64,000 nt of DNA from assembly GCF_902713615.1 (NCBI RefSeq), contig NC_052157.1:61654146-61718145 (forward strand), read 5' to 3'. The notes under the pieces are model-generated. The model was given only the letters and a program-made list of their open reading frames with translations. It was not told the origin of the DNA and ran no database searches. This DNA is from Scyliorhinus canicula. Taxonomy: Eukaryota. Made by a program: the position numbers and the translations under genes. The stretch's first letter is position 1. Each line of letters opens with the position of its first letter. This document shows positions 801 through 58,679 of this stretch, one piece after another.

Positions 801-957
801 TCATTAGCCGCAGTGTCTGTGGAATCACAATCTGATGATTTCACAAAAAAAATCCATTAATGTCACTTAATTCTGCTTGAATGTTATAGAAACTCAAACA
901 TGATCCTTTGGGCCATCCTTCATGGATGTACTTTATCACTTTCTGCAACATTAGGTC

Positions 958-9561: not shown

Positions 9562-9790
9562 GGAGACAGTAGAATCAGCAGCATTTGAAACTGGGGAGAC
9601 AGTAGAATCAGCAGCATTTGAAACTGGGGAGACAGTAAAATCAGCAGCATTTGAAACTGGGGAGACAGTAGAATCAGCAGCATTTGAAACTGGGGAGACA
9701 GTAAAATCAGCAGCATTTGAAACTGGGGAGACAGTAGAATCAGCAGCATTTGAAACTGGGGAGACAGTAGAATCAGCAGCATTTGAAACT
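9562..9790 (+). repeat. 33-bp tandem repeat (about 7 copies) encoding ETGETV(E/K)SAAF inside the ERV RNase H
   Basis: Unit GAAACTGGGGAGACAGTA(G/A)AATCAGCAGCATTT repeated nearly perfectly. Confidence 0.95.
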
Positions 9791-10916: not shown

Positions 10917-13689
10917 ATGTTTTCATTGGGTTTTGGTGTACATAACAAATATAAATATAACAATGAGAATTTTGCAAGGGAACTCCGAGGCAGTACCCTT
11001 AAAGTTAAAATGATTTACATCGAGATTGGTTTTAGCTATTCACATGATTTTACAGTCTCCTCTTTCCGTTCCTTCATCCTTTCCTCGCGGCGTTTGCTGT
11101 GGCTGTTGTGGTCTCCTGTGTTTCCCTGCCCATCGTTTTCCCCCTCTCTTTTCTACCCCCTGGTTCCCATTGTTTTTGCACCTGTCCTCCCCTCTGAACC
11201 TTTCTCTGGTTGGGTTTGCTTGTACTTTCCTATTTTCCCGATCCCTCCCCTTCCTCTCCCCTGCCCCTCCCTTCCTCCTTCTGTGTCATGATAACTCTCC
11301 CTTTGTCCTTGGCTACCTAGTTGTTGGCCACAAAGAGATCCTGGAACAACCGAGTGAATGGCTCCCAAGTTCTGTGGACGCCCTCTTCCGACCCAGTCGT
11401 CTGTACGTGTCGCTACGGTTCCCTTTGCCTAAAATGTCCACATCCAGCATTTCATCTGCCAGTGATTGTTGTGGCAGTCGTGGGTACGTCCTTGTTTCTT
11501 TGCACTGAAAGTTTTTAAGCTGCAGGTACCTGAATTAGTTACCACCAGTTAGGTGGAATCTTTCTGTCAGCTCATCCAGCGTTGTTATTCTACCGTCAGT
11601 TTGCAGATCCCTAACTGTCAGCATCCCCCCATCCTGCCTCCACCTTTCGAAGGGGGCATCTGTGAGCACTGCCAGGACCCTGTGGTTGTTGAAGATGGGG
11701 GCCTTATCGGACATTTTGGTTACGCCAAAATGTTGTCGCAGTTGATTCTACGACTGGAGTGTTGCCACCATCTCTGGGCTGGTTGATTGCTTCTTGGGTG
11801 GAGATGGGAGTTCCACCGTGGCTGGGACCTGGAGGAAGTTCCTCCTCCATGAGCACCCACTCAACTTCCGGCTCCTTTATCCACCCCTTTATTCTTTCTG
11901 CTGTCGCTGCCCAGAGATCGTATCTTAGGTTTGGGAGGACTAGTTCCCCATGGATTTTAATCTCAGTAGAGCCTTCTTTGGCATCCTTGCATTCTTCCTC
12001 CCCCCCACCACCCCTGGCTTGCCTCCACACGAACACCATAATTAGTTTGTCCTGTGAGTTGACAAAAGCCTTGGGGATTTTGATCGGGATGGATCTAATG
12101 GATCTAAATAGGAAAAGGTAGATTGGCAGCACATTCATTTTTATCATCTGCACCCTCCCCGCTTGGGAGAATGGGAGTGTGTTTCATCTCTGCAGGCCCT
12201 TTTTAACTTTCTCTGTCAGACTGGTCAGGTTCTATTTGTGAACCCCTGTCCAGTCATGAGCGAATTGAATCCCCAGGTAGCAGAATTTATGCCAGGTCCG
12301 TTTGAATGGCAATCCCACCAGCTCTGCCCCTCCTCTTGCAGGCTTACTGGGAAGATCTCGCTTTTGCTCATGTTGAGCTTGTCACCCAAGAAGACTCCAA
12401 ATTTGTTCAAGAGCGCAATGATTCCTTCCATGCTGCTTTGAGGGTCTGTTATGTAATAATCTTTATTGTCACAAGTAGACTTACATTAACACTGCAATGA
12501 AGTTACTGTGAAAAGCCCCTAGTCGCCACATTCCGGCGCCTGTAGAGGAGCAGGCCATCTACACAGAGCAAGACTCTCTGCTCTCTGCCTCTCTTCAGAT
12601 CACCTTCCAATTATTTGCCATGTTAAGGAATGGGTTAAGAGACATTCCAATTAAATGTCTCATTTATGTTAAGTATCCAATAATTGACACTGATATGGAA
12701 GAAGCTTCAGGTGGCCTTTGAGGCATGTGATGTTATGATAGAGTTTTTTGTACAGAGTTGTGTTGAAGGAAAATAAACGTGTTTGTGAGAAGGAGCAGAA
12801 CTTTTGACTCTTTATACAACAGCAGCTAAACGGCTAACTGTGGTAGCAGAGGACAGTTGCTGTGCAAACGTGAAGGGTTAAAAGATACTACTTTTCCAGC
12901 CCCAACCAAGGGGTGAGTGAAAAAAAAGTACATATGATAAAGATGGCTGGATATGACTATCCCCCCTTATTTTCTGAAAGGGGATCGTACGACCAATGGA
13001 GAAGTGCAGTTGTTATGTGGACTAAGGTAACTGCATTGGGAAAGAGGAAAAAAGGTATGGCATTGGCTCTTTCTCTATCTTATGAGAGTAAATTCCGAAG
13101 CAAAGTGTTTTCTGAGCTGGAATTGGAAGAGTTAGACTTAGAAGAATAATGAGGTATAATGAGTGCACATACACACTGTGATACATTTAATTCTGTTCAA
13201 CTTTTTATAATATGTTTTCAAATGAGGCATGTCTGGTTAAGCTGTTTTAATCTGAGCCTGGTCTCATGACTATATTTCTAAATTTATTACGTTATATGGA
13301 TAAAATTTATCAAAAGAGTGACTTGTTAAGTGAGTATGAAGCCTGGTCAGATTTTGACAGATCCCGGAAAACAGAGGATGTCTCCAATGAAGACTATATA
13401 ATGGAATGTAGCAGACTATATAAAAGGCTGCAAAAATACAGCCTGGAATTTCCACAGTCTGTGTTGGCATTTAAATTACTGGACTGTGCGAGAGTGAGTA
13501 ACATGAATAGGCTCCTGGTTTTGAGAGGAGTTCAGTTTGCGGATAAGGAGACCTTATTCGATCATATGACAGATGCATTAAAAAACTTTTCTGGGGAAAC
13601 ATTCCAGTCGTATGGCTCTGATGACCCAAATAGGACAGTCAACAATAAAACAGACTATGGGAGATACACTACTTTTTTTCTTTTTTTCC

Positions 13690-13910
13690 ATAAATTTAGA
13701 GTACCCAATTCATTTCTTTCCAATTAAGGGGCAATTTAGCGTGTTCAATCCACCTACCTCGCACATCTTTGGGTTGTGGGGATGAAACCCACGCAAACAC
13801 GGGGAGAATGTGCAAACTCCACATGGACAGTGATCCAGAGCTGGGATCGAACCTGGAGCCTCGGAGCCGTCAGGCAACAGGGCTAACCCACTGCGCCACC
13901 GTGCTGCCCG
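13690..13910 (-). mobile_element. HE1-like SINE nested in the Copia element
   Basis: Same consensus as the copy at 2790-3005. Confidence 0.85.
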
Positions 13911-15647
13911 GACGATACACTTCTGACAAGATGGCGAAATGGGACGGCTACAAACAGGTTGCAAGAGTATGGAAGGAGATCGGGACCCGGAAAGTATGAG
14001 GACAGAAACCCATTTAGAGCCTCTAATAGGAGGAGGGACGTGTAAAATGGAAATAGCAAGATGAACCCCAGAAATGTAGGTATGATAAATCAATGTTTTC
14101 GTTGTGACTCTCAATACCATTAGGCTTTCAACTGTCCAACACATTATAATAGAGTGTTTGAAGTGACACATGACATGGAAGAGTCAGAAGAGGAAAAAGA
14201 TAGTGACCAGAAAGAAGGAATTGTCCTAATAACATGCAGTTTTACTCCGGTAATTAGGGTGTTGGTTGCATAATCCTTCAACTGTGCTGTATTGTACAGT
14301 GGCTGAACATCTACTGTGTGTGGGATTGACTGGTTAAAATGTTACCTGAACTCTTTGAATGCTGAAAATCGTAACAAGGTTAAGGAATTTGAAAGTTCTA
14401 TAAGTCTCAGGTTTGGGGATGATAATACTCTGAAGTCGCTGAAAAGAATGGAGATCCCTTGCAATATTGCCGGAGTGAATCATTTCGTTAGCACGAATGT
14501 TGTATCAAGTGAGCTACCTTTGCTTCTGAGCAGACCGTCGATGAAGAAAACACACATGAAATTGGATATGGACCAGGATAAGGCAACAGTTTTTGGAAAG
14601 ACGGTGGACTTACAATTTACACAGTGGGGACACTGTTGTATTCTATTACTGACAAATAATATTTCAGGTGCAGTTGTTAAGGATGTGTTAATGGCAGTTG
14701 GAAATGGAACTTTAGTTGATAAAAAGCTTGTATTAAAACTGCATAGACAATTTGCACATCCGTCTCCTCGGAGACTGAAAAATGTATTAAAGGATGCAGG
14801 GGTAAGGGATGAAGACAATACTAAGCTGATAGAACAGGTTAGTGATCGCTGTGAAGTTTGTGGGAAGTAGAGAAGGACACCATCACGACCGATAGTAACC
14901 TTACCTTTGGCCAGGTATTTTAACAACATTGTGGCCATGGACCTTAAGGTCTGGGATAAAGCTAACAATATATTTATTTTGTAGATTTAGCAACCAGATT
15001 TAGTCAATCAACTATTGAACGAAGTAAAGAAAAGAGAATAATTCTGGATCAAATCGTGGAAAAATGGATAGGGACAGGAATGGACCCTCTGGTAAAATTC
15101 CTTCCAGACAATGGGGGAGAATTTGCTTATGATGAATTTAGGGATATGTGTGAAAACTTGAATATCACAGTTCTGAATACGGCTGTGGAAAGCCCATTTG
15201 GTAATGATGTGTGTGAATGAAACCATGCTGTAATAGATGACATGCTCCAGAAAATTTTGGGAGATAGACCAAACTGAAAGTTAAATTCAGCTTCAGCATC
15301 GGCGGTACATGCAAAGAGTTCATTGCAGATGGTTGGGCGCTATAGTCCCTGTCAATTAGTGTTTGGTAGAAATCCTAAAATTCCGTCCATTTTGGATGAA
15401 CTGCCTCCAGCTTGGGAAGGGACTACGATTAGCTGTGCTTTTGCTGAGCATTTAAATGCATTACATAGCAGTAGAAATGCTGTTTTGGAAACAGAAGTCT
15501 CTGATAGAATTCACAGAGCTTTATGGCATTATGTACGGCCGTCAAATACCGTTTTTCAGCAAGGAGACATATGAGAGACAATTTTAATGAATGGAAAGGC
15601 CCAGGGAAGATCACAGGCATAGATAGCAAAACAATTATTTAGCAACA

Positions 15648-16000
15648 TGGGCAGCATGGTAGCATTGTGGATAGCACAATCGCTTCACAGCTCCAGGGTC
15701 CCAGGTTCGATTCCGGTTTGGGTCACTGTCTGTGCGGAGTCTGCACGTCCTCCCCGTGTGTGCGTGGGTTTCCTCCGGGTACTCAGGTTTCCTCCCACAG
15801 TCCAAAGATATGCAGGTTAGGTGGATTGGCCATGCTAAATTGCCCTTAGTGTCCAAAATTGCCCTTAGTGTTGGGTGGGGTTACAGGGTTATGGGGATAG
15901 GGTGGAGGTGTGGGCTTGGGTAGGGTGCTCTTTCCAAGAGCCAGTGCAGACTCGATGGGCCAAATGGCCTCCTTCTGCACTGTAAATTCTATGCAAATCT
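15648..16000 (+). mobile_element. HE1-like SINE (long form with CR1-type tail)
   Basis: GGGCAGCATGGTAGC..GGTTCGATTCC (B-box)..GGCCTCCTTCTGCACTGTAAATTCTATG. Confidence 0.85.
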
Positions 16001-16166
16001 ATGTAAACATGGCAATCAAACTGTGAGGGTACATTCATCAAGGATAATGGGTCCAGATTACAAATTTTCAAATTTAGACAGAGGCATGACGAGGAACCGG
16101 ACTCATCTTGTACGCATGTATTACAGAACCATGAGGACCAGGTTAATTGATATAGACAGGGGGCGG

Positions 16167-16635
16167 GAATCTCTGACCCTGAGGCGTAAGTGTTGACGCC
16201 ATCGTAAACGCAGTCGCATTTCCTGACGTTATCAACATGGCCTCAGGATCAGCGATCTGACCCCTGCAGGGAGCCAGCATGGCACTGGAGTGACCCACGC
16301 CGCTCCAGCTGCCGATTGCGACGTCAGATGTGCGCCGCGGGTCTGCGTATGCGCAGAGGTTCCCTTCTCCGCACCGGCTCCGACGCAACATGGCGTAGGG
16401 CTACAGGGGCTGGCACAGAACAAAGGAGGCCCCCAGCCCGAGAGGCTGGACCGCCGACCCGTAGGCCCCGATCATGGGCCAGGCCACAGAGGAGCCCCCC
16501 CCGGGGTCGGAACCCCCTACCCCGCCAACGGATACATTCACACCGAGGTCACACCAGGTAAGACCAGGTTAGAACGGCGTCGGCAGGACTCGGGTTTTTT
16601 GTACGGTCGCTCGCCCATCCCGTGCCGAGAATCAC
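16167..16635. mobile_element. Harbinger-derived non-autonomous element (MITE)
   Basis: GGGGCGGGAATCTC start and GC-rich body, resembling the other GGG..GGAATTCTCC-ended copies in the window. Confidence 0.55.
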
Positions 16636-16799
16636 CGGGGGGGGGGGGGGGGGGGGGGGTGCGTAGAGCAATTGACAATAAATCCCTGTGGGAAAATGTG
16701 CACTCTCCAAAAAGTGTCAATGAGAAAAGGTTAAGGATAGACATCGCAAGTTTGAAGCAGATGTTGGACAAAGGGGAGATAGCAAAAAATTAAATGAAA

Positions 16800-16986: not shown

Positions 16987-19900
16987 AGCTGGGTCGACAG
17001 TAGCTATCAATTGTCCGACTGTTTTACGAAAAGAGGGGCTAGTTCACAGAAACTTTTGGATATTATTAATGAAGGGCGTCTGTTTCTATGACTTTTTTTT
17101 TCCTTCCAAACACTGGAAAAAAAAGGAAGGGGGGAAATTGCGTGTGTTTTTGAGTTTCTTGTGATTTTGTTTTCACCAAATTATTTGTTTTCTCCAAGGA
17201 AGGGGAGATGTTAAGGAATGGGTTAAGAGACATTCCAATTAAATATCTCATTTATGTTATAATTATCCAATAATTGACACTGATATGTAAAGAGCTTCAG
17301 GTGGCCTTTGAGGCATGTGATGTGATGATAAAGTTTTTGTACAGAGTTGTGTTAAAGGAAAATAAAGGTGTTTGTGAGAAGGAGCAGAACTTTTGACTCT
17401 TTATACAACAGCAGCTAAACGGCTAACATGCCACTCTGAATGCAATCGCTAATGGCTCTATCACAAATGCAAACAGCAGCAGGGATAGCAGGTATCCCTG
17501 TCTCGTGCCCTTGTGCAGCTGGAGATACTTTGAGCTGGTGGTGTTTGTCCGAATGCTCGCCATGGGGGCGTTATACAGGAGTTTTACTCAGGCGATGAAT
17601 CCTGTTCCGAGCCCGAACCGCTTCATCTCGAAGGGCTTTTCTGCTTCCTGGGAGACGATCACCTCAGGTTTTCTCTCCCCGGATGGGGTCATGATCCCGT
17701 TCAGCAGGTGCCTGATGTTTGATGTGAGCTGCCTACCTTTGACAAAGCCTATTTGGTCTTCTGCGACCACCCCTGGTACGTAGTCCTCCAGCCATTTGGC
17801 TAGGATCTTGGCCAGTATTTTTGCGTCAACATTCAGTCGTGAGATGGGTCTGTAGGAACCGCACTCTGTTGGGTCTTTGTGCTTTTTCGGTATCAGCGAG
17901 ATTGAGGCTTGTGCCAACGTGGGCATTAGTGTGCCCCTCGCCAGTGAATCTGTGAACATCTCCCACAGGTGTGGGGCCGGTGTTGTCACAAATCATTTGT
18001 AGAAGTCCGCCGGGAAACCGTCCGGACCCGGCGCCTTCCCTGACTGCATGCAGCTAATGATCTGGATGACCTCTCCCAGTTCTAGCGATGCTTCCAAACC
18101 GCATTTCTATCCTATCCACAATTGGCAAGTCCAGTCCATCAGGGATCTGCTTCATTCCCAAGTCCCGTGCTGGGGACTCCGAGGTGTATAGCCCCTGGAA
18201 GAAGGTCTCAAAGGCTTTGTTGACCTTGTCTGGGTCCGTTACTAGTGTGCCTCCGCTATCCCTAATTTGTGCAATCTCCCTTGCGGCTGCCTGTTTTCTC
18301 AGCTGGTGAGCCAGCAGACAGCTGGCTCTGTCTCTGTAGGGTCCCCTGTGCCCGGCGGAGTTGGTGTACCGCTCTCCTCGTGGAGAGCAGGTGAAAGTCC
18401 ATCTGTAGTTTTTTTTCTTTCCGCCAGGAGCTCTACGGTCAGAGCCTCGGAGTATCGCCAGTCCACCTCCGGTATGGAGTCAACTCGCTGTCACCTGGCC
18501 ACCCTCTCTTTCCTGTCTCTTCTTGCTTTAAAAGCGATAATTTATCCCCTGATCAAAGCCTTCAGCGCCTCCAAGAACGTGAAGGGTGAGACCTCCCCGT
18601 TCTGGTTGTTCTTTATATATTCATTTGTGGCCTGTGATATTTTCTCACAAAAAGCTTTGTCAGCCAGTAAGCCCATGTCCAACCTCCATGTGAGGTGTTG
18701 GGCACGGCCTGTCTCCAATCTCACATCCATGGAATGTGGAGTCTGCTCTGAGATTACGACTGTGTAGTAGTCTGCCCTAACCAGCCCTGGAAGCACCGAT
18801 TTCCCCACCATAAAGAAGTCGATCCTTGAGTAAACGTTATGCACTTGGGAGAAGAAGGAGAACTCTTTCTCCTCTGGGTGGGTGAATCGCCATGGGTCCA
18901 CTGCCCCTAGCTGCTCCGTAAAAAGGCCAAGTTCCTTAGCCATGCTGGAGGTCTTTCCCATTTTGGGGTTCGACCTGTCCGTCTGTGGGTCCTGTATGCA
19001 GTTAAAATCTCACCATGATCAGTCGGTGCATGTCTATGTCGGGGATTTCTGTCATGGTCTTCTTTATAAACTCCGTGTCGTCCCAGTTGGGAGAATTAAT
19101 GAGGACTACCGGTGCCCCGTCTAGGATACCGATGACCATGACGTACCGTCCCCCTGGGTCCGTTACCGCCTTTGCCACTGTGCACATCGTCCACTTATTA
19201 ATTAGAGTGGTTACCCAACTGGCCCTCGTTCCGTAGCAGGAATGGTAGATCTGTCCCACCCTGCCCTTCCTTACCCGGTCGGTCCTTCTCCCTCAGGTGT
19301 TTCACTTGGAGGAAGACTATGTCGGCTCTCATATTCCTCAGGTAAGTGAAGACTCTGGATGTTTTCACTGGGCAGTTAAGTCCCCTGACATTCCAGGTGA
19401 ATATCCTGATGGGGATTTTTTGTCCTTCCGCTCCTGTGGGATTACCCAGATTCATTCAGTGGATGTGCCCCTGCACTCCAGGCTTTCCCTTTGTTAGGGG
19501 ACCATCCAAAATGGCCGTGGTCACTGTTCTCCCCATGTGGTCGGGCCCCTCCACTCCGGTGTCTCCTTTTGCCCAGGGACCCTTCTAAGTGGTTGCTTAG
19601 CCCACGTGTGGCCTGCTGCAGCCAGTCTGCCATTTTTGATCTGTCCTTTCCCCTTGCTGGGGGCACACCGCAGCCATTGTCCTTCACACGAGTCCTGGTG
19701 CTAGCTGTCTCGGTAGTGAGGTGGCTCCCCTCCCAGGAGTTACTGTGGTTGCCTCCCTCGCCCGTTGTCTGAAATTTTGCTCACTCTGTCCCCTCTCTTA
19801 CACTGTACTTGTACGGACGTCACTCACCTTTCCCTTTTTCGCTACCTTCGTTTTTCAGAACGAGGCCCGGTTCTCCCACGTAAAGCGGTCTCGTTGGTGC

Positions 19901-21129: not shown

Positions 21130-23020
21130 TAAGATGTCCGATAATTAAAACAGTGGAGGAGTCAAGAGAGGTTGGGGGGGGGGGTAGAACTGGGTGTCGT
21201 TCAGTGTACATGTGAAAACTAACACTGTTCAGATGATGTTGCAAAGCCATTACAAGTAATTCTCTATCTAGGATTAGACAGCAATGGAACCAGGTTAGAG
21301 CAGCCCCACCCAGCTGGACAACATTGTACAGAACCATTGGAGGGGTAGGTGTGGTTAATCATGTCAAAGGCTGCAGAAAGGTCAAGAAGGGCAGGTTTCT
21401 CTTCCTCACAGTCACATAAGGTGCCATTAGTGACTTTCTTTTTATAAATCTGGAGTACCCAATTCATTTTTTTCAATTAAGGGGCAATTTAGTGTGGCCA
21501 ATCCACCTACTCGGCACATCTTTGGGTTGTGGGCTGAGACCCACGCAAACACTGGGAGCATGTGCAAACTTCACATGGACAGTGGCCCAGAGCCGGGATC
21601 GAACCTGGGACTTCAAAGAACAAAGAACAAAGAAAAGTACAGCACAGGAACAGGCCCTTCAGCCCTCCAAGCCCGTGCCGACCATGCTGCCCGACTAAAC
21701 TACAATCTTCTACACTTCCTGAGTCCATATCCCTCTATTCCCATCCTATTGCCATAGAATTTACAGTGCAGAAGGAGGCCATTCGGCCCATCGAGTCTGC
21801 ACCGGCTATTCATGTATTTGTCAAGATGCCGCTGAAATGTCACGATCGTCCCTGCTTCCACCACCTCCTCCGGCAGCGAGTTCCAGGCACCCACTACCCT
21901 CTGTGTAAAAAACCTGCCTCGTACATCTACTCTAGACCTTTCCCCTCGCACCTTACACCTATGCCCCCTAGTAATTGACCCCTCTACCCTGGGAAAAAGC
22001 CTCTGTCTATCCACTCTGTCTATGCCCCTCATAATTTTGTAGACCTCTATCAGGTCGCCCCTCAACCTCCGTCGTTCCAGTGAGAACAAAACAAATTTAT
22101 TCAACCGCTCCTCATAGCTAATGCCCTCCATGCCAGGCAACATCCTGGTAAATCTCTTCTGCACCCTCTCTAAACCCTCCACATCCTTCCGGCAGTGTGG
22201 CGACCAGAATTGAACACTATACTCCAAGTGTGGCCTAACTAAGGTTCTATACTGCCTTGGCACCGTGAGGCAGCAATGCTATCCACTGTGCCACCGTGCT
22301 GCCCCGTCATTAGTGACTTTAATAAGAGCTGTTTCAGTACTGTCACCGTGGCAGAAACCGGATTGGAAGGGATCAAATATGGAGTTCCTGGAGAGATGTG
22401 AACGGATTCGGAAGATGAAAACATGTTCAAGGATTTTGGAGAGGAAAGAGAGGTTGGAGATGGAATGGGAGTTTATAAGGACAGTGGGGTCAAGGGTTGT
22501 TTCTTTGAGGAGAGAGTTGTTTGAGGCAGATTTGAAGGAGAGAGGGATGACACATGAAAAGCGAGAACTGTTAACAATATCACTTGATATGAGGATCAGG
22601 AGGGGAAGTTGTGTGGTCAGCAACTTACTGGGAATAGAGTCAAGGGAAGAGGAGATGGCTCTGATGGAAAAGATGTGTTCACAAAGGACATGAGGGAAGA
22701 CAGGTGAGAAACTGGAAAAAGATGTGAGTTCAGGGATAGGGCGGGGGGCATCAGTGGCGGTTGTCATAGTGGATTATTGGAAGGGAGGGTCAAGACAGAG
22801 GCAGCTGATTCGATTGTCTCAATCTTCGTGACACAGAATCCAGCGTTTTCTTTGAGAGGATGTTTTCCCTGTAGACATCAGGAGGATCCTGAACCCAGAG
22901 GAGAGAAAGCAAGATGAGTTAAGATGGAGGTTGAAACCTCCGAGGATAGGAATGTATTCAATGCAGACAGAGTGAGGAAGGCAGTGAAGATATCTTGGTG
23001 AGAAATAGAAAATCATTAAA
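21130..23020 (-). mobile_element. L2 LINE RT fragment interrupted by a SINE/CR1 stack
   Basis: ISNLSFLSKILE..DPFQSGF..STETALIKVTND and LLDLSAAFDMINH on either side of the insertion. Confidence 0.8.
21438..22307 (-). mobile_element. HE1-like SINE with 13-bp TSD (CATTAGTGACTTT), itself split by a CR1 3' fragment (~21612-22255)
   Basis: TSD at 21425-21437 and 22308-22320; ORF 21700..22263(-) LVRPHLEYSVQFWSPH is the CR1 RT C-terminus. Confidence 0.85.
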
Positions 23021-25095: not shown

Positions 25096-26855
25096 ATTGT
25101 TACATCACCCTGGGTGAGTTCACGGTCAATTCCAGCCCACAGACCCCGGCGTCCCAACATAAGTGAATTAACCAATAATTTGCGCTTTCTGAAGACCGTT
25201 AACCCTTCACTGGTCCAATGAGTTACAGACACCAGATTTATAAGTAAAACAGGAACAAAATATTTATGAATAAAAAGGAGAAAAGAGGAACATAAATAAG
25301 GCAACAACAGGACAGCCGTCTCCCAGTTTACCCAATCCCAAGATTCCTTCCCACCCTCTACCCAGATACACACAAGATAGACACAGGGCAAGGGTCGGCG
25401 GGGAATTAAATAAAATAGGGATTAAAGAGGTAGGTTTTGAAATGAGACTTCACTGCTGTGGTTGCAGTCTCTGGGAAATAGGTTTACTTGAGAGGTTCAG
25501 GTTGGCGCAATTCTGACCTTCGACCACCAGATGGCGCTTCACCTAAGAATTCTCGGTCGATGTGATCCCACTCTTTTTTTATTTTTAAAATCTTTTTATT
25601 GTCACAAGTATGCTTACATTAACACTGCAATGAAGTTACTGTGAAAAACTTTCATCCCCACATTCTGGCGCCTGTTCGAGTACACAGAGGGAGAATTCAC
25701 AATGCCCAATTCACCTAACAGCACGTCTGTGGGAGGAAACCAGAGCACCCGGAGGAAACCCACACACTCACGGGGAGAACATGCAGACTCTGCACAGACA
25801 GTGACCCAAGCCGGGAATCGAACCTGGGACCCTGGAGCTGTGAAGCCATAGTGCTAACCACTATGCTACCGTGCTGCCTATCTTTAGCCATCAGGTGGAG
25901 CAAAGGCCGGGGAGTTCAGATCAGTGCCATTCTCATTGTCGGCCACCAGACGGTGCTGTACACAGGATGTTCAGATCGATGCACTTCTGCCTTTCTACCC
26001 CCAGATGGAACTTTCACCTCCCTGCGAGGACAATACAGCTCTGATCCTGGAATTTAGCAGTTTTGATTGGCCTGATTCCTGTACAACACTGGCGGTTTTA
26101 TCGCAAATGCTGCGACTTAAAGCTTTAATTCTTCAGCACTTCCCAGCCTTTGACACACACATTTAAAGGTTGCTGATCTGTGGGAAAACTTGTATTTTTA
26201 CCACTCAAGTTCTCTTTCCCAGTTCTGTTGGCTGTCTTTGCTCCTTTCACAGATTTGCCTCGGATGCTTTTAAAATCGACCTGCAGAGAGAGGTAAGAGA
26301 GAGGCAGTCCTCAGGATGCTTGCTCGTTGGCTTCTTAACAGGACTGAGCAAAAGATAGCACTCTCCAGAAGACCCGCCTGTGATGAGATGCCGATGTGTT
26401 ATATAATAGTTGGATGGTGTGAGACCTCCAACCAGCAGGTGGTGGTACAGATACACCATGCTGTCTTCAGACCAAGGTCATGTGACCTGGGACCCGGATA
26501 TAAAGGGAGACACATCCAGCCATCTTCAGAAGAAGATTGAGAGGTTACTAAGACGTGCGTGTGATTGGCCAGTGCGATGTAAGTTCCAGAGGACTAGCAA
26601 TACTCCATGATAACGTGCTCTGTATCAGATTGCCATCTTACCACAAGACACAATAAAAGGATCCTGGTTTGGACATATCGAAATGTTTGGTGAGTTACTT
26701 CATAAAGTACAAGGGACCAAACACAACATGGTACCACGAGTGCTGAAGATTTGAAATGGCAATGGCAGTGACAATGTTAGGCAATCGGCTTGAAGACTGG
26801 TCTGGTGAACTGCAACCTGAGGCAACCCAACGTTAAAAAAATACTGAAGTTTGAG

Positions 26856-28270
26856 ATGGACGGACTGAGGGCCCCCCACCAGCTTCAGATGTCCAGTAAC
26901 GTAAGTGAGAACAGGCGGCTGTTCAAATAGCAATTCGAACTTTGTTTCGGCTGTCAGACTGCAGGCCCAGCCTGATGAAAGGCTAATGAACTGGCAAATC
27001 TGGCAGTTTCACTCCAATCACTCAAACTTATAACTCGTTTGTCTTTGAACGTGACGGGTGTCAGAAAAATTCTGATGAAGTTCCAAAGCGCTTTGAGCAG
27101 CATTGTCCCCCCCAAGAAGAATGAAACTTTTGAAAGCTACATGATTTATATGCGTCCCCAGAGACCTGGCGAATCATTTGACAGTTTTGTCACAGACTTG
27201 AGGCTGAACGCCCAGTCATGCAACTTCGGGGACTTAAAATTTGCCTTAATCCACAACCAAATTGTCTTTAGTTTGCTTGATAATAAGCATAAGGTGATAT
27301 TATTGCGGGAGGAAGCTTTGGTATTGGAACAGGCAGTGAAGATTTGCCAGGCGAGCGAGATTGCTGCACAAAGAGTCGGCGCACTCTGCTCAAAAGGTTT
27401 TGGTGTCAACGTGGATGAAGATGCCAGTGTCATTCGTGCTGTGACGCACATCATAAAGAAACATGGTCTCAGTCCGGTGGCCATTTTAAGCAGCCGATCA
27501 GAGCCGCCGCCATCTTGTGCCAAAAATGTGGCACTCGACATCCTCCAGGGCAATGTCTGGCCTATGGAAAAGTTTGTTCCAGGTGCGGTGAGACTTTGCT
27601 GATCGGTCAGGGATCAAGATAGACTTCGGCACAAGACTCTAGAGACCTTGTATCTTTGCAAATTAGTGGGGCAGCACGGTAGCACAGTGGGTAGCACTGT
27701 TGCTTCACAGCGCTAGGGTCCCAGGTTCGATTCCCGGCTTGGGTCACTGTCTGTGTGGAGTCTGCACTTTTTCCCCGTGTCTGCGTGGGTTTCCTTCAGG
27801 TGCTCCGGTTTCCTCCCCAAGTTCCGAAAAATGTGCTGTTCAGTGAATTGGCCATTCTGAATTCTCCCTCAGTGTACCTGAACAGATGCCGGAATGTGGT
27901 GACTCGGGGCCATTCACAGTAAATTCATTGCAGTGTCAGCCTACTTGTGGCAATAAAGATTATGAAAATCGTTTATTGTCACAAGTAGGCTTTAAATGAA
28001 GTTACTGTGAAAAGCCCCTAGTCGTCACATTCCGGCACCTGTCCGGGGAGGCTGGTACGGGAATTGAACCGTGCTGCTGGCCTGCCTTGGTCTGCTTTAA
28101 AAGCCAGTGATTTAGCCCAGTGTGCTAAACCAGCACATATTATGGTGTTCTCAGTGGCAGGTATAAAGTACACAATACTCTTTCATTTTGTAGATTTGGA
28201 TGTGGACTTAGTCATTGGTATGAAATCGTGTGAATCCTTGAATATAATCGAGCGGATAAATCTCCTCGGA
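26856..28270 (+). pseudogene. Decayed gag and protease C-terminus of the composite element (with SINE insertions at 27667-28136)
   Basis: MDGLRP..QLQMSSNVSE, KNETFESY..QRPGESFDSFVTDLRLNAQSCNFGDL, C..CGTRH; ..LFHFVD..VIGMKSCESLNIIERI resembles the end of a Gypsy protease. Confidence 0.75.
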
Positions 28271-28279
28271 GACAGCTGG

Positions 28280-29977
28280 TCACCTGAGCACAGTGAATCA
28301 CTGTGTGCACAGTGCATCACGGTGAGCACAGTGCATCACGGTGAGCACAGTGAATCACTGTGTGCACAGTGCATTACGGTGTGCACAGTGCATCACGGTG
28401 TGCACAGTGCATTACGGTGTGCACAGTGAATCACTGTGTACACAGTGCATTACGGTGTGCACAGTGCATCACGGTGTGCACAGTGCATTACGGTGTGCAC
28501 AGTGAATGACTGTGCACAGTGAATCACTGTGTGCACAGTGCATTACGGTGTGCACAGTGCATCACGGTGTGCACAGTGCATTACGGTGAGCACAGTGAAT
28601 CACGGTGTGCACAGTGCATTACGGTGTGCACAGTGAATCACTGTGTGCACAGTGCATTACGGTGTGCACAGTGCATTACGGTGGGCACAGTGCATCACGG
28701 TGTGCACAGTGCATTACGGTGAGCACAGTGAATCACTGTGTACACAGTGCATTACGGTGTGCACAGTGAATGACTGTGTGCACAGTGCATTACGGTGTGC
28801 ACAGTGAATCACTGTGTGCACAGTGCATCACGGTGTGCACAGTGAATCACTGTGTGCACAGTGCATCACGGTGTGCATAGTGAATGACTGTGTGCACAGT
28901 GCATTACGGTGTGCACAGTGAATGACTGTGTGCACAGTGCATTACGGTGTGCACAGTGCATCACGGTGTGCACAATGCATCACGGTGTGCACAGTGCATC
29001 ACGGTGAGCACAGTGAATCACTGTGTGCACAGTGCATTACGGTGTGCACAGTGAATCACTGTGTGCACAGTGCATTACGGTGAGCACAGTGAATCACTGT
29101 GTGCACAGTGCATTACGGTGTGCACAGTGAATCACTGTGTGCAGTGCATTACGGTGTGCACAGTGCATCACGGTGAGCACAGTGAATCACTGTGTGCACA
29201 GTGCATTACGGTGTGCACAGTGCATCACGGTGTGCACAGTGCATTACGGTGAGCACAGTGAATCACGGTGTGGACAGTGCATTACGGTGTGCACAGTGAA
29301 TCACTGTGTGCACAGTGCATTACGGTGTGCACAGTGCATCACGGTGTGCACAGTGCATTACGGTGAGCACAGTGAATCACTGTGTACACAGTGCATTACG
29401 GTGTGCACAGTGAATGACTGTGTGCACAGTGCATCACGGTGTGCACAGTGAATCACTGTGTGCACAGTGCATCACGGTGTGCATAGTGAATGACTGTGTG
29501 CACAGTGCATTACGGTGTGCACAGTGAATGACTGTGTGCACAGTGCATTACGGTGTGCACAGTGCATCACGGTGTGCACAATGCATCACGGTGTGCACAG
29601 TGCATCACGGTGAGCACAGTGAATCACTGTGTGCACAGTGCATTACGGTGTGCACAGTGAATCACTGTGTGCACAGTGCATTACGGTGAGCACAGTGAAT
29701 CACTGTGTGCACAGTGCATTACGGTGTGCACAGTGAATCACTGTGTGCACAGTGCATTACGGTGTGCACATTGAATCACGGTGTGCATAGTGCATTACGG
29801 TGTGCACAGTGAATCACTGTGTGCACAGTGCATTACGGTGTGCACAGTGAATCACTGTGTGCACAGTGCATTACGGTGTGCACAGTGCATTACGGTGAGC
29901 ACAGTGAATCACTGTGTGCACAGTGCATTACGGTGTGCACAGTGAATCACTGTGTGCACAGTGCATTACGGTGTGCA
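28280..29977. repeat. 1.7-kb minisatellite of ~19-bp variant units (GTGCACAGTGCATTACGGT / GTGCACAGTGAATCACTGT)
   Basis: Direct reading; units interleave and contain the near-palindrome CACTGT(GT)GCACAGTG. Confidence 0.95.
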
Positions 29978-30590
29978 GTGTATGAGGATTCAGATGAAAT
30001 CCCAGTGGAATATGACAAACGAGGCACAGCGACGGAACTGCCAGCGAGCATTCCTCAATTCTGGTTAACAGTCTTGAAGAACGTGAATAGACTCAATGGC
30101 ATGATATGAGGATATGATGAACCCGTATTAAAGCATCTGTGAGATGTGAGTGTTAAATGGACAGAGATTGACAAGCCATGGAGCTTCACTCATGACTCAC
30201 GACCACTGAAATCATGTGTGGATGAGCCGCAGATCATCGGCTGCATTGGCTGCACAATTGATTGGAGAGGGGGAAAACATGTAGCAGTACAAACAATTCA
30301 AACAAAACCAAAATACAGAGGTCGGACCGATCCATGAACCATGACCGATCCATGAACAGTGACAAGACCCATATCCAAGGAATCGTTCTTCAACTTCTTT
30401 GGCGGTCAAATAAAAGACTGATTTTGAATTTGGCGCAGTTTCAAAAACAATTAATTCCGTATGCAAAGTCATATTTTTCAGGTGAAAAGACTGACGATGA
30501 TACTGAATCCAAGGCCGACTACTATGAAAATCTGTTTGAGATTACTGACGATGGTGAAGGTGAGACGGATGAGGAACACTATGAGCTGCT
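29978..30590 (+). pseudogene. Intronless NAP1-like (nucleosome assembly protein 1 family) sequence with stops, a deletion and frameshifts
   Basis: SIPQFWLTVLKNV..MI*GYDEPVLKHL*DV.VK, IIGCIGCTIDWRGGKHV, TVTRPISKESFFNFF, DFEFG..QLIPYAKSYFSGE and an acidic tail are collinear with NAP1L1/L4 motifs (GIPEFWLTVFKNV, EHDEPILKHL, GCTGCQIDWKKGKNV, DSFFNFF, DFEIG, YFTGE). Confidence 0.85.
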
Positions 30591-30675
30591 TGTACAAGCC
30601 TTCTCCAGCGGCACAGATGAGGCTCCAGTGGCACGGCTCCAGTGGTCGGCAAGCAATGACAAGGTGGTCACAGGG

Positions 30676-32365
30676 AACATACAGGGTGAGATTCTTAATG
30701 AGTACTTTGCATCGGTATTCACCAAGGAGAGGGACAAGACGGATGTTGAGGCTAGGGATGGATGTTTAAATACCCTTGGTCAAGTTGCCATACGGAAGGG
30801 GGACGTTTTGGGTATTCTAAAAGACATTAAGGTGGACAAGTCCCCAGGTTACTGAGGGAAGCGAGGGTCGAAATAGCTCGGGCCTTAACAGATATCTTTG
30901 CAGCATCCTTGAGCACGGGTGAGGTCCTGGAGGACTGGAGAATTGCTAATGTTGTCCCTTTGTTTAAGAAGGGTAGCAGGGATAATCCAGGGAATTATAG
31001 ACCTGTGAGCTTGACGTCAGTGGTAGGCAAACTGTTGGAGAAGATACTGAGGGATAGGATCTATTCATATCTGGAAGAAAATAGACTTATCAGTGATAGG
31101 CAGCATGGTTTTGTGCAGAGAAGGTCATGTCTTACAAACCTAATAGAATTCTTTGAGGAAGTGACAAAGTTAATTGATGAGGGAAGGGCTGTAGATGTCG
31201 TATACATGGACTTTAGTAAGGCGTTTGATAAGGTTTCCCATGGCAGGTTGATGGAAAAAGTGAAGTCGTATGGGGTTCAGGGTGTACTAGCTAGATGGAT
31301 AAAGAACTGGCTGGGCAACAGGAGACAGAGAGTAGTGGTGGAAGGGAGCGTCTCAAAATGGAGAAGGGTGATTAGTGGTGTTCCACAGGGATCCGTGCTC
31401 GGACCACTGTTGTTTGTGATCTACATAAATAACCTGGAGGAAGGTATAGGTGGTCTGATTAGCAAGTTTGCAGATGATACTAAGATTGGTGGAGTTGCAG
31501 ATAGCGAGGAGGACTGTCAGAGAATACAACAAAATATAGATAGATTGGAGAGTTGGGCAGATAAATGGCAGATGGAGTTCAATCCAGGCAAATGCGAGGT
31601 GATGCATTTTGGAAGATCAAATTCAAGAGCGGACTATATGGTCAATGGAAGGGTCTTGGGGAAAATTGATGTGCAGAGAGATCTGGGAGTTCAAGTCCAT
31701 TGTACCCTGAAGGTGGCAACGCAGGTTGATAGAGTGGTCAAGAAGGCATACAGCATGCTTGCCTTCATCGGACGGGGTATTGAGTACAAGAGTTGGCAGG
31801 TCATGTTACAGTTGTATAGGACTTTGGTTCGGCCACATTTGGAATACTGCATGCAGTTCTGGTCGCCACATTACCAGAAGGATGTGGATGCCTTGGGTGC
31901 AGAGGAGGTTCACCAGGATGTTGCCTGGTATGGAGGGTGCTAGCTATGAAGAAAGGTTGAGTAGATTAGGATTGTTTTCATTGGAAAGACGGAGGTTGAG
32001 GGGGGACCTGATTGAAGTCTACAAAATTATGAAAGGTATGGACAGGGTGGATAGCAACAAGCTTTTCCCAAGAGTGGGGGTGTCAGTTACAAGGGGTCAC
32101 GATTTCAAAGTGAGAGGGGGAAAGTTTAAGGGAGATGTGCGTGGAAAGTTTTTTACGCAGAGGGTGGTGGGTGCCTGGAACGCTTTACCAGCGGAGGTGG
32201 TTGAGGCGGGCACGATAGCATCATTTAAGAGGCATCTAGACAGGTATATGAATGGGCGGGAACAGAGGGAAGTAGACCTTGGAAAATAGGAGACAGGTTT
32301 AGATAAAGGATCTGGATCGACGCAGGCTGGGAGGGCCGAAGGGCCTGTTCCTGTGCTGTAATTTT
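30676..32365 (+). mobile_element. 5'-truncated CR1 LINE (RT) inserted in the NAP1-like tail
   Basis: ORFs 30909..31943 and 31726..32289 (NYRPVSLTS, YMDFSKAFD, GVPQGSVLGP, KFADDTK) and a (TTCTTTG)n tail. Confidence 0.95.
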
Positions 32366-35300
32366 CTTTGTTCTTTGTATACCAGACCCCGCTGGACTCT
32401 GTGGAGTGTGGGAGTTTGGAGATGGCGAGCTCTACGATGTCTCCCTGCTAGCTCCCAGCAAAATGGAGAATCTGTGGCCATTTGACGCCAGTTTCCCTGG
32501 TGTGAAAGACCACAGTTTTCACAACGGTGTGGGGACTTAGACCCAAAACCGGAGAATCCAGCCCCACATACCTCTGAGGGCAGCATTTCCAAGATCGGTA
32601 CAATTTCTTGCGCCTTTGGTTCCCTCAATAGCCGATCTTCAGCAGTATCAGCAGCCTTGAATTCTACATGCGACATCTCCAAACTCTCGCTCTCCACAGA
32701 ATCCAGCGCGGTCTGGGCGTCCCCCGTGACCACTTCGTCATTGCTGCCAGAACACTGGAGCCTCATCCGTGCTGCTGGAGAAAATCGGGAATTCAGCCGG
32801 TTTTCGGGGGGGGCAAAGAATTTTAAAACCGGCGCCGCTCCCGATTTCGGCACCAAAAGGATTCTCTTTGGGGAATCCAGCCCCAATGTCCCGCCACGAG
32901 TCCTTGAAACAGCTCCAGTAATTTACTCCCAGGCAGTCTGCTTGGGAGTAAATGACGAGTGGGAGGATATAGATGAAGATGCTGATTGCAGCGTTGTGGG
33001 GGTTGCAATATGAGGCGACTCTGACACTGACTCCGAGAATGGCCTAATGACCATCTCATTATGCAGCTCCTTGGACCACTGACACATTTGCGAGTTCGAT
33101 CTGGAAGACCCAGGGCTTGGATCAGCTAAGCCAGACACTATAGTCATCTGCAGTGATGACAAGCAAGTCACCAATGCTCCAGCCTCCGTTTCTGCACTAG
33201 TAACCAAGGTGATCCAGCATGTTGATGAGGCCGCAGAAATGGGCGTTCTCACACCAAACAGAGATCCAGAAACGCCGAGACCTCTTCGGATACCTCACCA
33301 CATGACAACAGCCAGTGCCACACCAGAGGCTGTTACAAAGAAGACAACCAAGAGACACACTAGAATACTTCAACGTGTCCAGAAAGTGAAAAAGTAAAGG
33401 AAAAGACTGGGATGACCACCGCATCCCGCCAGCCAACCAGTATCGAAAGCACTGGCAGGTAACAAGCAGCAACATGCCAGAAAACGAAAGAGAAAGTGAC
33501 TGGTAACGCAAATCTAGCAGTCTTGGACACAGGCCTTTCAAAAGCACAGGGCGAAGCGTAAGAAAAGCAAGCAACCGATAAGCAAGCCAGATTCTGCGGA
33601 GGTGAGAACCAACTTGAAACAATGGCATCTACGTAGAATGCAAATGGACACTTTTTGTAAAAACTTGTTCACTGTACCAGCTGCATACCAGATCTATATA
33701 AAATGTAATGTGTAACGTTGCCTGTAAAAATAATTTAATATAAATGTTAGATGGATTGACCATGCTAAATTGCCCGTCGTGTCCTAAAAAGTAAGGTTAA
33801 GGGGGGGGTTTGTTGGGTTACAGGTATAGGGTGGATACGTGGGTTTGAGTAGGGTGATCATTGCTCGGCACAACATCGAGGGCCGAAGGGCCTGTTCTGT
33901 GCTGTACTGTTCTATGTTCTATGTTCTATGTTTTGTGAGGAAGTAGGAATGTGGTGATATGCCTACGGGCAATATCATAGTTGGAAGGTGTGCGGCCTTT
34001 AACCAGCAGGTGGCGGTACAGACACACCATGCAGTCTATAGACCAAGGTCATGTGACCTGGGACCCAGATAGAAAGGGAGGTACATCTGGCCATCTTCAG
34101 AAGAGGTTTGAGAGGTTAATAAGACATACATGTAATTGGTCAGTGCTAGGTGTAAGTTCCAGAGGAGTAGCAAGACTCCACGATAATGTGGTTTGAATCA
34201 GATTGCCATCTTACCACACGAGGCACAATAAAAGGATTCTGGTTTGGACATATCAAAGTGTTTGGTGAATTAATTCATAAAGTACAAGGGGCCAAACACA
34301 ACACCGCCTTCTTCCCTGAAGGCTCCTGACTAGCTTCACCAACCTCAGGCCTGACAGTAGAAGGTTGAAAGTCCTATTTGCACTGATTGCCTGCTTGCCA
34401 AGTCTCTCAAACAACATCACAGATTCTGCCACAGTAGCCAAAGGGGATGTTTTTGGACCAGCCCATCTGAAAGGGGGTTTGTCCCAGTGTCCAAAGACTA
34501 CAATTTAAACAGAAAACCCAAAGGCTGCAGTAACTTAGCAGCAGCCAGCCCCGAAGAATGTATATCACAACAGGCAGCAGGATGGGCATGAAAAGAGAAC
34601 ACAGGACAGACAGACAATATCCAAACATTATGCTCTGAGAAGGAACAATTCTGTCTAATTCCACCTTCCAGCTCTTGGTCTGCAGTCCTATAGGTAACAG
34701 CACCTCAAGCACAAATTTGGTGTTCTTGACTAATAAGCAAATTTCTTGATTAATGAGGGGATCAGGGGTTATGGGGAGAAGGCAGGAGAATGGGGATGAG
34801 AAAAATATCAACCATGATCGAATGATGGAGCAGTAACGATGGGCCGAATGGTGTAATTCTTCTCCTGTCTTATGATCTTATGGTCCTTCCATCTCTGCAT
34901 ATCTGTTCACATGTGTCTTGTCTAAATAGGTGAACCCACAACATATTTACACAATCCCTGATGAGTGACTGATGCCCTTATATCATTATAAAAACACAAG
35001 ATAATGTTAAGCGGTTGTCAAACATCCTGGCAGTAAGATTCAGTACAAGTACGACATGGTGAACAGCCTTAGATCATGCTACATGGTATGAGACCACACT
35101 TGATATTTTTCTCAGACCACAATAGAGTCGCAGTGTCAGAGAGTGTTGAAATCGTAGCCTGCTGATTGGGCAGGAAATCTTTGAAAATAGAAACATGGAC
35201 ATAAAGCGATTGGCAATTTAAAACATGACAGTGATGTACACAATGAGGTGACGAGTGTTGATTAATATTTCACTTTACACAAATGTCCTGAAATTAATTG

Positions 35301-39700: not shown

Positions 39701-39724
39701 TTCTAGAATAATTACAGGGGGAGA

Positions 39725-40320
39725 ACCAGTACTGAAAGGATGCCACACAGTTAGAAGGTCAGTACTGAGAATGTGCTGCACTGTTGGAGGGTCAGTACAG
39801 AGGGTGCACTGCACTGCCAAAATGTTAGGCATGAAGCGGTGTATCAGTTTTGGTGGACTTGTACTGAGGGACTGTCACAATGTCAGACGATCAGTACTCT
39901 GGGAATACTGCACTTTCTGATAGTCATTAGTAAGGGAGTGCTGCACTGTCGGAGTGTCAGTACTGAGGGAGAGCTGCATAGTCGGAGGGTCAGCACTGAG
40001 GGAGTGCTACACTGTTGGAGGGTCAGAACTGAGGAGGGCTGCATTACTGGATGGTCAGTACTGAAGGAGTACCACACAGTTGGAAGGTCAGGACTAAGGA
40101 AGTGCTGCACTGTCGCCAGGTAACTACGAAGGGAATGTGCACTGTTGGAGGATCAGTACTGAGGGAGTTTGCATTGTAGGAGGGTCAGTACTGAGGGAAG
40201 GCTGCACTGTCAGTGGGTCAGTACTGAGGAAGTGTAGGACTGTTGGAGCGTCAGTACTGAGGAGTACCACACTATCAGGGGGTCAGCACTGAGGGAGTGC
40301 TGCACTGTTGAGGTTCTGTC
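39725..40320. repeat. Degenerate ~33-bp satellite (GGGTCAGTACTGAGGGAGTGCTGCACTGTCGGA)
   Basis: Direct reading of repeated CAGTACTGAGGGA / GCACTGT units. Confidence 0.9.
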
Positions 40321-40324
40321 ACGA

Positions 40325-40620
40325 GGGAGTGCTCCACTGTTGGTGGGTCAATACAGACAGTGTTGAACTTGCAGTCGTCCGGGCAAATGGGGAGCTGGTG
40401 GTAGGCGGATCTGAGGTCCACCGTGGAAAAGACCTTGTATTGTTCAATCTGATTGACCAAATCAGATACGTGGGGAAGAGGGACCGCGTTGAGCTGCGTA
40501 TACCTGTTGATGGTCTGGCTATAATCGATGACCATCCTGTGTTTCTCCCCGGTCTTTACGACCACTACTTGAGCTCTCCAGGTGCTGTTGCTAGCCTCTG
40601 TACTCGAAACCTCTCGCAAT
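40325..40620 (-). mobile_element. Gypsy reverse-transcriptase fragment
   Basis: AQVVVVK..HRMVIDYSQTINRYTQL..PLP..VFSTVDLRSAYHQLP. Confidence 0.85.
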
Positions 40621-42604: not shown

Positions 42605-43175
42605 TCCCACTGTCAGAGGGTCAATACTGAGGGAATTCTGCACAGTCGTGGGGTCAGTACTGAGCAATCCTCCACTGCACTATCGGAGGCTCAGTACTGA
42701 GGGAATTCTGCACAGTCGTGGGGTCAGTACTGAGCAAGCCTCCACTGCACTGTCGGAGGGTCAGTACTGAGGGAATTCTGCACTGTCGGAGGTCCAGTAC
42801 TAGGGAATTCTGTACTGACGGAGGGTCCATACTGAGAGAGTGATGTACTGTTGGATGGTCAGTACTGAGCGAGCCTCCGCTACTCTGTCGGAGGGTCGGT
42901 ACTGAGGGAGTGCCGCACTGTCAGAACGTCTCTACTGAGGGAGTGCTATACAGTCAGAGGGTCAGTACTGAGAGAGAGCTGCACTGTCAGAGGGTCAGTA
43001 CTGAGGGAGTGCCGCACTGTCAGAGCGTCTGTACTGAGGGCGTGCTGCACTGTCAGAGGGTCAGTACTGAGAGAGTGCTGCACTGTCACAGGGTTAGTAC
43101 TGATGGAATGCTGCACAGTTGGAGGGTCAGTACTGAGGCAATTCTGCATTGTCGGATGGTCAGTACTGAGGGAGT
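42605..43175. repeat. Degenerate ~33-bp satellite, second block
   Basis: Same unit as 39725-40320. Confidence 0.9.
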
Positions 43176-43354
43176 GCTCCTCCGTCGATCAGAAGAATGT
43201 TCTATAAAACAGTTTTGAGCCTCACACCCAGACCTCAATACTAAATAGAAATATTTCAATATCACCAATCATTGGAACCTTTCTTTATAAAGTCACAGCA
43301 TCAACAACGGACAATGTTGGTCATGGATGTAAATTCCATTTGTTTATTACTTAC

Positions 43355-58580: not shown

Positions 58581-58679
58581 AACCTATTAAAAGTTGTGGG
58601 TCAGGTGAACTCCATGATACACTTCGGGGTTCTCTGAACCGCGGCCCATAACAAATCCATGAGGCAGCAGCGAGGGAGA

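Follow-up and report, generated by a model that had tools for sequence, protein, structure and literature searches.

An LTR retrotransposon of the catshark Scyliorhinus canicula carrying an intronless NAP1L1-derived domain

The window analysed here is a stretch of 64,000 nucleotides of the genome of the catshark Scyliorhinus canicula (NCBI RefSeq assembly GCF_902713615.1, contig NC_052157.1, positions 61,654,146 to 61,718,145 of the forward strand), and coordinates are counted from its first letter. Positions 26379-34303 are occupied by a single long terminal repeat (LTR) retrotransposon, in which an intronless piece derived from NAP1L1, a histone chaperone of the NAP1 family, lies at the position of pol. 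Related proteins, designated below by numbers such as P0024, occur in this species and in Scyliorhinus torazame. We consider it probable, at roughly two chances in three, that a non-autonomous Ty3/Gypsy-type LTR lineage of sharks captured half of NAP1L1, kept it under constraint and spread it, the window holding a dead copy.

A single LTR element with a NAP1L1-derived cargo

The two LTRs are ~85.6% identical (302 of 354 columns match; Kimura two-parameter (K2P) distance 0.15), and the element is flanked by a CCGCC target-site duplication (TSD); the chance of a matching 5-bp TSD is ~0.001. Because the LTR pair, the matching CCGCC, a primer-binding site (PBS) and a polypurine tract (PPT) are all present, 26379-34303 is a single insertion and not the LTRs of two separate events. 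Paired TG...CA repeats, a TSD within the 4-6 bp range, PBS and PPT are the features by which an LTR retrotransposon is recognized. An earlier reading of the DNA alone (the sequence-only reading) had claimed this full set of signals together with the CCGCC duplication, and each of them has been located; its concern that the LTRs might stem from separate insertions is answered by the matching flanks. No further copy of the LTR lies anywhere in the 64-kb window, which also contains no tRNA gene. The PBS is presumably of the tRNA-Leu type. The element and its flanks are made up as follows.

26374-26378: left TSD, CCGCC, identical to 34304-34308
26379-26728 (+): 5' LTR (TG...CA), from the alignment of the LTR pair, with AATAAA at 26652
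26729-26746 (+): PBS, starting TGG, directly 3' of the 5' LTR
26856-27600 (+): decayed gag-like open reading frame (ORF), with a capsid-like part and a Cys/His knuckle region cut short; identity with the P0024 gag part is 47.5% across 101 aa
27664-28130: two nested short interspersed element (SINE) insertions, dispersed repeats with many 75-91% matches elsewhere in the window
28130-28276 (+): probable C-terminal end of an aspartic protease, presumed from resemblance, Pfam giving no match
28288-29977: 19-bp minisatellite of 89.2 copies, separating the protease end from the NAP start
29978-30500 (+): domain II ('earmuff') of NAP1L1 origin, without introns, its 5' truncation lying at the family start; matched by Pfam NAP and PDB chains
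30501-30678 (+): acidic tail plus the initial portion of the family-specific tail, with a 14-nt duplication
30679-32378 (+): 5'-truncated CR1-type long interspersed element (LINE) of 1.7 kb with a reverse transcriptase (RT) ORF (RVT_1, E 4.2e-35), lying inside the NAP tail; 77% identical to a copy at 21802-22252
32382-32427 (+): second part of the family-specific tail
32428-32565: dispersed repeat fragment resembling a miniature inverted-repeat transposable element (MITE), 65% identical over 127 nt to 52765-52888
32566-32782 (-): the family-specific tail again, as an inverted duplicate with its frame open, at K2P 0.17 from the direct copy
32783-32883: second MITE-like fragment, with the end motif of 32428-32565 and no other match in the window
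32884-33737 (+): coding-like segment, acidic then basic, with few stops in one + frame (weak)
33738-33933: SINE/LINE-tail fragment
33937-33949 (+): PPT of 13 nt, 12 of 13 purines, directly 5' of the 3' LTR
33950-34303 (+): 3' LTR (TG...CA)
34304-34308: right TSD, CCGCC, identical to the left copy

The Pfam NAP family (PF00956) matches the cargo from 29978 with E 5.9e-24 (85 bits, against a cut-off of 28.6), and the best PDB matches are NAP1L1 chains, from residue 148 on (E 2e-30). Some ~510 bp are collinear with 211 canonical NAP1L1 residues, with deletions and no introns. The exon border S|DE, marked in 26 of 111 gene models, is spanned without a gap. Exon borders besides S|DE and PPE|VP are marked by 3-4 models each in another set and by none of these 111, and are presumptive. 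Since the cargo is intronless while Nap1l1 is multi-exonic (PMC3107425), origin through an RNA intermediate is supported, as the sequence-only reading had proposed.

There is no run of six or more A residues near the cargo and no common flanking word longer than 7 nt; the 3' poly(A) and flanking TSD of a processed pseudogene are thus both missing, marks that the sequence-only reading had named as counting against it and that old copies can lose. What is present is a partial, intronless mRNA copy lying between discontinuous parts of the element. Partial capture lacking poly(A) or TSD is described as the product of template switching in an LTR particle (PMC5131818), and such arrangements are termed LTR-mediated retrocopies. 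The cargo is truncated at both ends. Seven full-length NAP1 queries and three shark NAP1L1 sequences gave no match to domain I, the dimerization helix, upstream of it, and the canonical NAP1L1 C-terminus is missing. The 5' switch junction is covered by the minisatellite, which had been correctly placed ahead of the NAP stretch.

The window copy is dead: there are four in-frame stops in its first 146 codons, frameshifts, and deletions of ~24 and ~14 codons. The NAP1-family coding sequence read earlier at 29978-30590 is confirmed as to family, but it is broken, consists of earmuff and tails only, and its homology extends to 30678 and resumes at 32382-32427. The tail sequences flanking the LINE rejoin when aligned to the inverted copy of the tail, and a candidate foldback transposon at 30601-32782 was dropped when the stretch proved to be NAP tail plus inverted copy. 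As its distance from the direct tail (K2P 0.17 over 111 nt) about equals that of the LTR pair, the inverted tail appears to have arisen near the time of insertion, or to have been kept matched.

The gag-like ORF is interrupted by stops and frameshifts, and no Pfam gag family matches it; the ESM Atlas offers Retrotrans_gag (0.92) as a lead, only half of the features (128 of 256) being in common, and the single match of the ORF to PDB sequences was judged to be chance. Hence, of the gag and protease end said earlier to be retained, the decayed gag-like ORF stands, and the protease remains a label that we presume from likeness. Pfam searches at E<=1 in six frames of 32380-33950 and three frames of 26730-28291 found no LTR-type RT, RNase H or integrase, so the element lacks the enzymes of an autonomous one. 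The earlier statement that these were absent holds for LTR-type RT only, because the nested LINE carries an RT ORF at 30679-32378, the sole RT inside the element. We presume that the element belongs to the Mag-like clade of Ty3/Gypsy.

Relatives, constraint and rival origins

Relatives of the cargo were sought with phmmer among 1.84 billion representative proteins, giving 532 matches, and by a profile search giving 2167 matches from 4488 candidates; the statements below concern the best 150 and the best 120 respectively. Four of the phmmer matches (P0020, P0023, P0024 and P0104) start where the window copy starts, and the profile search added P0163 and P0252. P0023, P0024 and P0252 are from S. 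torazame, and P0020 and P0163 from S. canicula. These five are annotated proteins, single-member clusters on five contigs that differ in length, and in a tree without P0104 they form one clade (100/100) beside NAP1L1 of Heterodontus (99/91). The family proteins start at position 56-68 of the 266 in Pfam NAP, with P0163, P0023, P0020 and P0024 beginning at the first residue of the window copy, which is its 5' breakpoint. A methionine at or adjoining this breakpoint in three family proteins and in P0104 suggests separate translation rather than fusion to gag and protease. When longer proteins were searched by word index for the window peptide, 12 of 41 candidates matched, none closely.

A second shared feature is the tail absent from canonical NAP1L1 with which P0163, P0252 and P0023 end. 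It is present twice in the window, once directly, split by the LINE, and once inverted. A profile of the three tails scored the direct copy at 15.7 bits, its start having been picked by eye, which favours that score, and the inverted copy at 16.3 bits; for each, none of 1000 shuffles scored as high. Across all six frames of the window the inverted copy was the sole match (E 0.008), and no other protein among the 279 compared fell under E 3.

P0024 brings gag and NAP together. Capsid-like, knuckle-region and linker sequence of gag stands directly ahead of its NAP start, its gag part shows 47-48% identity with three gag relics in the window, one of them that of the element, and its knuckle region lies in the same shifted frame as that of the element (3 of 1000 shuffles). 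The order gag then NAP is therefore seen twice, in the window and in P0024, the latter being the one family protein of five with a gag join. With relatives of the same 5' start and tail in two Scyliorhinus species, one of them gag-joined, the cargo is not the single-copy sequence that would have told against the earlier proposal. The RefSeq models P0020, P0163, P0023, P0252 and P0024, named 'nucleosome assembly protein 1-like 1' or uncharacterized, are truncated and mutually diverged, and are probably repeat-derived; several catshark NAP1L1 models would be element copies and not host paralogues.

The window copy is 45-49% identical to the NAP1L1 cores of three sharks and rays (48% to shark NAP1L1), the NAP1L1 proteins of Heterodontus and Chiloscyllium being 98% alike; compared with one another, the six family proteins, P0104 included, are 43-71% alike. 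At half the LTR distance, neutral simulation leads to an identity of 0.83-0.84, and to reach 0.48 requires ~0.35 changes per site. Over 80 ungapped columns, conserved sites have an identity of 0.73 and variable sites one of 0.34, conservation being taken from distant homologues, and this gap was reached in none of 1000 neutral simulations at d = 0.075, 0.25 or 0.35. All six family proteins depart in the same direction, with ratios of 1.8-3.2. Because identity is far below what decay after insertion would leave, and changes are concentrated at variable sites, most of the divergence would have arisen under constraint at the protein level, before this copy inserted and died. The earlier claim that divergence exceeds the LTR age is thus sustained, with 48% observed against ~84% expected.

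Several points weigh against this account. The window copy has 36-46% identity with the six family proteins, or 42-46% once the partial P0252 is set aside, which is no closer than to canonical NAP1L1, and at 23 family-diagnostic columns it has the family residue in 5, the canonical one in 2 and another residue or a gap in 16. When other long rows are left out it joins the family at 98/93; with them included, it is drawn to long branches in two trees. The family grouping is not rejected (p-AU, from the approximately unbiased test, 0.37 and 0.68), nor is the long-branch grouping (0.32 and 0.42). Tree placement, proposed earlier as a check, has thus given a firm Scyliorhinus clade beside Heterodontus NAP1L1 and an unstable position for the window copy itself. 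As core-domain placement is unstable and diagnostic columns are few, its family membership rests on the common start and tail, and it would be a much more diverged subfamily. The neutral null has fixed rate ratios (kappa 3.5, CpG x5) and takes codon use to be random. Variable/conserved ratios in three mammalian models were 1.25, 2.4 and 1.7, that of the window being 2.0; with few changes, these models are too little diverged to be informative and were not used as support. The number of stops says nothing of ORF retention (the probability of three or fewer is 0.43 under neutrality) and was rejected as a sign of it, since it does not discriminate from neutrality. A database search with the tail returned just two of 32 candidates, P0163 and P0252. 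Three such gag relics lie within 64 kb, so the gag-NAP join of P0024, taken by itself, could be an accident or an artefact of the gene model. Gag and protease of the element are weakly identified. LTR context and absence of introns are established in the window only, the relatives being known as proteins.

The protein data alone would fit constraint acting in the element or in a host retrogene. We regard it as unlikely, though the likeliest of the rival origins, that host selection shaped half-NAP1 and its new tail in a retrogene, or small gene family, of the host, and that an LTR element took up the resulting mRNA late, once or a few times, as a passenger. Constraint, common start and tail, and double truncation would all follow with no benefit to the element; mammalian NAP1L retrogenes with large structural change exist (PMC3107425), and the Scyliorhinus proteins are annotated as genes. 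However, no protein more than 52% identical to the window copy was found among the best 150 phmmer matches. The family members are singletons just 55-71% alike, with long separate end branches, like decayed repeats and not like orthologues of congeneric species, and one of them, P0024, has gag directly upstream.

It is considerably less probable that a processed pseudogene made by LINE machinery landed by accident inside an LTR element already deleted for pol. LINEs are abundant in the window and the element did gather several later insertions, but the cargo has neither poly(A) and TSD nor the NAP1L1 C-terminus, sits at the position of pol in the sense orientation of the element, and recurs behind gag in P0024, while neutral decay does not yield the observed pattern of sites.

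The weakest proposal, to which we give very little credence, is that the cargo was kept for its RNA, as a tail hairpin feeding small RNAs or a packaging signal, with NAP1L1-matching small RNAs that could damp the host gene: the tail arms do pair as RNA (z -6.9, 0 of 100 shuffles) and are of about LTR age, and a precedent has been proposed for host-gene fragments in Drosophila telomeric elements (PMC13534243), but constraint falls on amino acids at structurally conserved sites, a protein identity of 48% leaves the host mRNA hardly targetable, the pairing arms lie in the non-NAP tail, and a one-off inverted duplication accounts for them equally well.

The predicted product and the other contents of the window

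The AlphaFold model of P0163 (mean predicted local distance difference test score 77.6) superimposes on residues 112-293 of ceNAP1 with Z 20.3 and a root-mean-square deviation (rmsd) of 3.0 over 171 aligned residues, and on yeast Nap1 over only 181-365 of the 74-365 construct (Z 19.0, rmsd 5.5, 174 aligned). We take the boundary between the yeast domains to lie near 181. On this model P0163 is the earmuff domain II without domain I; of the hallmarks of the NAP1 family it has the domain II fold and lacks the long dimerization helix.

Domain I is the dimerization helix of NAP1 (PMC9128123). In human Nap1 the long helix (alpha2) forms the dimer and holds the nuclear export signal (NES), and the nuclear localization signal (NLS) is the beta5-beta6 hairpin; a single ceNap1 monomer contacts H2A-H2B, using alpha5, alpha6 and alpha8 together with its acidic end, and HIV Tat is bound by hNap1 162-391, which enhances LTR transcription (PMC13255070). 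Half-NAP1 keeps the NLS hairpin and the H2A-H2B surface, and is without dimer helix and export signal. As these contacts, with H2A-H2B and with Tat, lie in it, the captured part is the client-binding half. Judged from its sequence, the product would be at most half a NAP1. The sequence-only reading had spoken of a non-autonomous family propagating its own nucleosome chaperone; several relatives and a pattern of constraint agree with this, but the window copy is broken, and 'own nucleosome chaperone' overstates the cargo because the dimerization helix of every solved NAP1 is missing. The likeliest role of the product, though held with less than even confidence, would be that of a monomeric, nucleus-retained acidic shield, putatively binding H2A-H2B at the chromatin of the element's LTR or the element's own nucleocapsid.

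The preferred reading, of capture and spread by an LTR lineage, would run as follows. Once, in an ancestor of galeomorph sharks, RT would have left the element RNA for a NAP1L1 mRNA packaged with it and then returned, so that RT, RNase H and integrase were replaced by a doubly truncated cDNA of domain II and acidic stretch only. A new start and a new tail, seen as common structure, would have been added. The chimera may have kept moving with the enzymes of autonomous relatives, splitting into diverged subfamilies with half-NAP1 under protein-level constraint; the pattern is seen in the sequences, and its place would be the element. The putative acidic shield would aid expression or integration of the element. 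The window copy would have died on insertion and then gathered SINEs, the minisatellite, the CR1 LINE and MITE-like pieces. A bolder form, which we hold with distinctly less confidence, is that the lineage gave up pol and re-engineered a host histone chaperone: selection for the element's own benefit would have preserved, through tens of millions of years, a newly tailed NAP1 earmuff that is monomeric and free of an export signal. As an accessory protein it would open element chromatin or shield the nucleocapsid, and it might be traded to autonomous helpers for enzymes.

Because dispersed copies of them exist, we regard the LINE, the SINEs, the MITE-like pieces and the minisatellite as later insertions; the SINEs at 27664-28130 are presumably of the HE1 type. 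The sequence-only reading had described about 1 kb of further coding- or UTR-like sequence (UTR, untranslated region) up to ~33730; a coding-like segment does lie at 32884-33737, if weakly so, and NAP tail, LINE and MITE-like pieces occupy the space between. This segment has 7 stops in 276 codons of one + frame, against 16 and 17 in the other + frames, a low count to which shuffling assigns a probability of ~0.03-0.1; counts in the minus frames are low as well (6, 6 and 8). It has no match in Pfam, PDB sequences or, by tblastn, 160 proteins, and gave no ESM Atlas result. A 39-nt near-palindrome (32918-32956) lies where the segment begins. At 32960-33170 (+), hydrophobic words with acidic residues on either side precede a Lys/Arg-rich end; these words are reminiscent of SUMO-interacting motifs, with no database match.

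Elsewhere in the window a second LTR-gag relic, broadly similar in kind, lies at ~950-2600 (+), with an LTR-like stretch, a TGGTACC PBS at 1349, gag and a protease start, ended by a SINE; its LTR does not match that of the element. A third gag relic at 53100-53800 (+), downstream of the MITE-like repeat 52765-52888, is the closest match in the window to the gag part of P0024 (47.9% over 117 aa), and more distant gag-like pieces at 10090-10344 (-) and 62305-62529 (+) match it weakly (E 0.007 and 0.022). At 13251-16793 (+) Pfam gag_pre-integrs appears below cut-off (E 0.068), and we take the fragments there to be Copia-type gag, protease, pre-integrase and RNase H. A 207-codon ORF at 55033-55656 (+), with no Pfam match, is reminiscent of a zinc-finger-bearing N-terminus as in hAT-type transposases; an inverted repeat lies at 55579-55768. 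Non-LTR endonuclease and RT fragments lie at 56000-60800 and 18200-19000 (Exo_endo_phos, E 3e-08 at 56694-57353; RVT_1, E 1.5e-11 at 59115-59600). A degenerate 33-bp minisatellite forms two arrays, 39720-40354 and 42608-43218, ~2.3 kb apart, and another 33-bp array is at 9562-9790. Rfam gave 23 sub-threshold miRNA matches in the window, 22 of them in the minisatellite, which we read as chance.

Comparison with known systems

In literature searches aimed at a NAP gene in a retroelement or in sharks, which did not take in Repbase, Dfam, subscription journals or supplements, we found no report of a NAP-family gene in an LTR element. If the preferred reading is true, a captured chromatin-factor domain has been constrained as protein while spreading in a vertebrate element; it would then be a host-derived accessory gene, with a counterpart in the chromatin factors of viruses, and would serve as a natural experiment on whether a NAP1 earmuff works without its dimer helix.

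The nearest parallels are the LTR-mediated retrocopies of animals (Tan et al. 2016, PMC5131818), likewise partial intronless host mRNAs in an LTR element, with no poly(A) or TSD of their own and able to move again non-autonomously. Those are young and near-identical to the parent, whereas the shark cargo has an identity of 48-74%, with start and tail both new, is known from two species and appears constrained as protein. Maize Bs1 (PMC5131818) is likewise an old LTR chimera with captured exons, and its copies share switch points across related species; it is a plant element with three metabolic parent genes, in contrast to the one chromatin-protein domain in a vertebrate here. Mammalian NAP1L2, NAP1L3 and NAP1L5 (PMC3107425) are mono-exonic derivatives of NAP1L1/L4 with large structural change and purifying selection, but are fixed host genes outside LTR elements, whereas the shark family branches from shark NAP1L1 and lacks the dimerization helix. 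With canonical NAP1/NAP1L1 (PMC9128123, PMC13255070) the family has in common the domain II fold (Z ~20), the NLS hairpin and the acidic C-terminal stretch. Unlike canonical NAP1L1, it has no domain I (dimer helix and NES) and no canonical C-terminus, bears an extra tail, and in the window is broken.

Arabidopsis VANC is an accessory gene borne by a mobile element and credited with acting on host control. The same is ascribed to the piwi/aub fragments in telomeric elements of Drosophila (PMC13534243) and to the accessory or host-derived sequence of planarian Burro (PMC6431247); all three differ in element class and cargo, and the available text of these two reports describes no NAP-family domain. 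The capture of host mRNA by LTR elements is known, and the case described here would be a variant of it, with a NAP1L1 earmuff as cargo, protein-level constraint, and relatives in two species of catshark.

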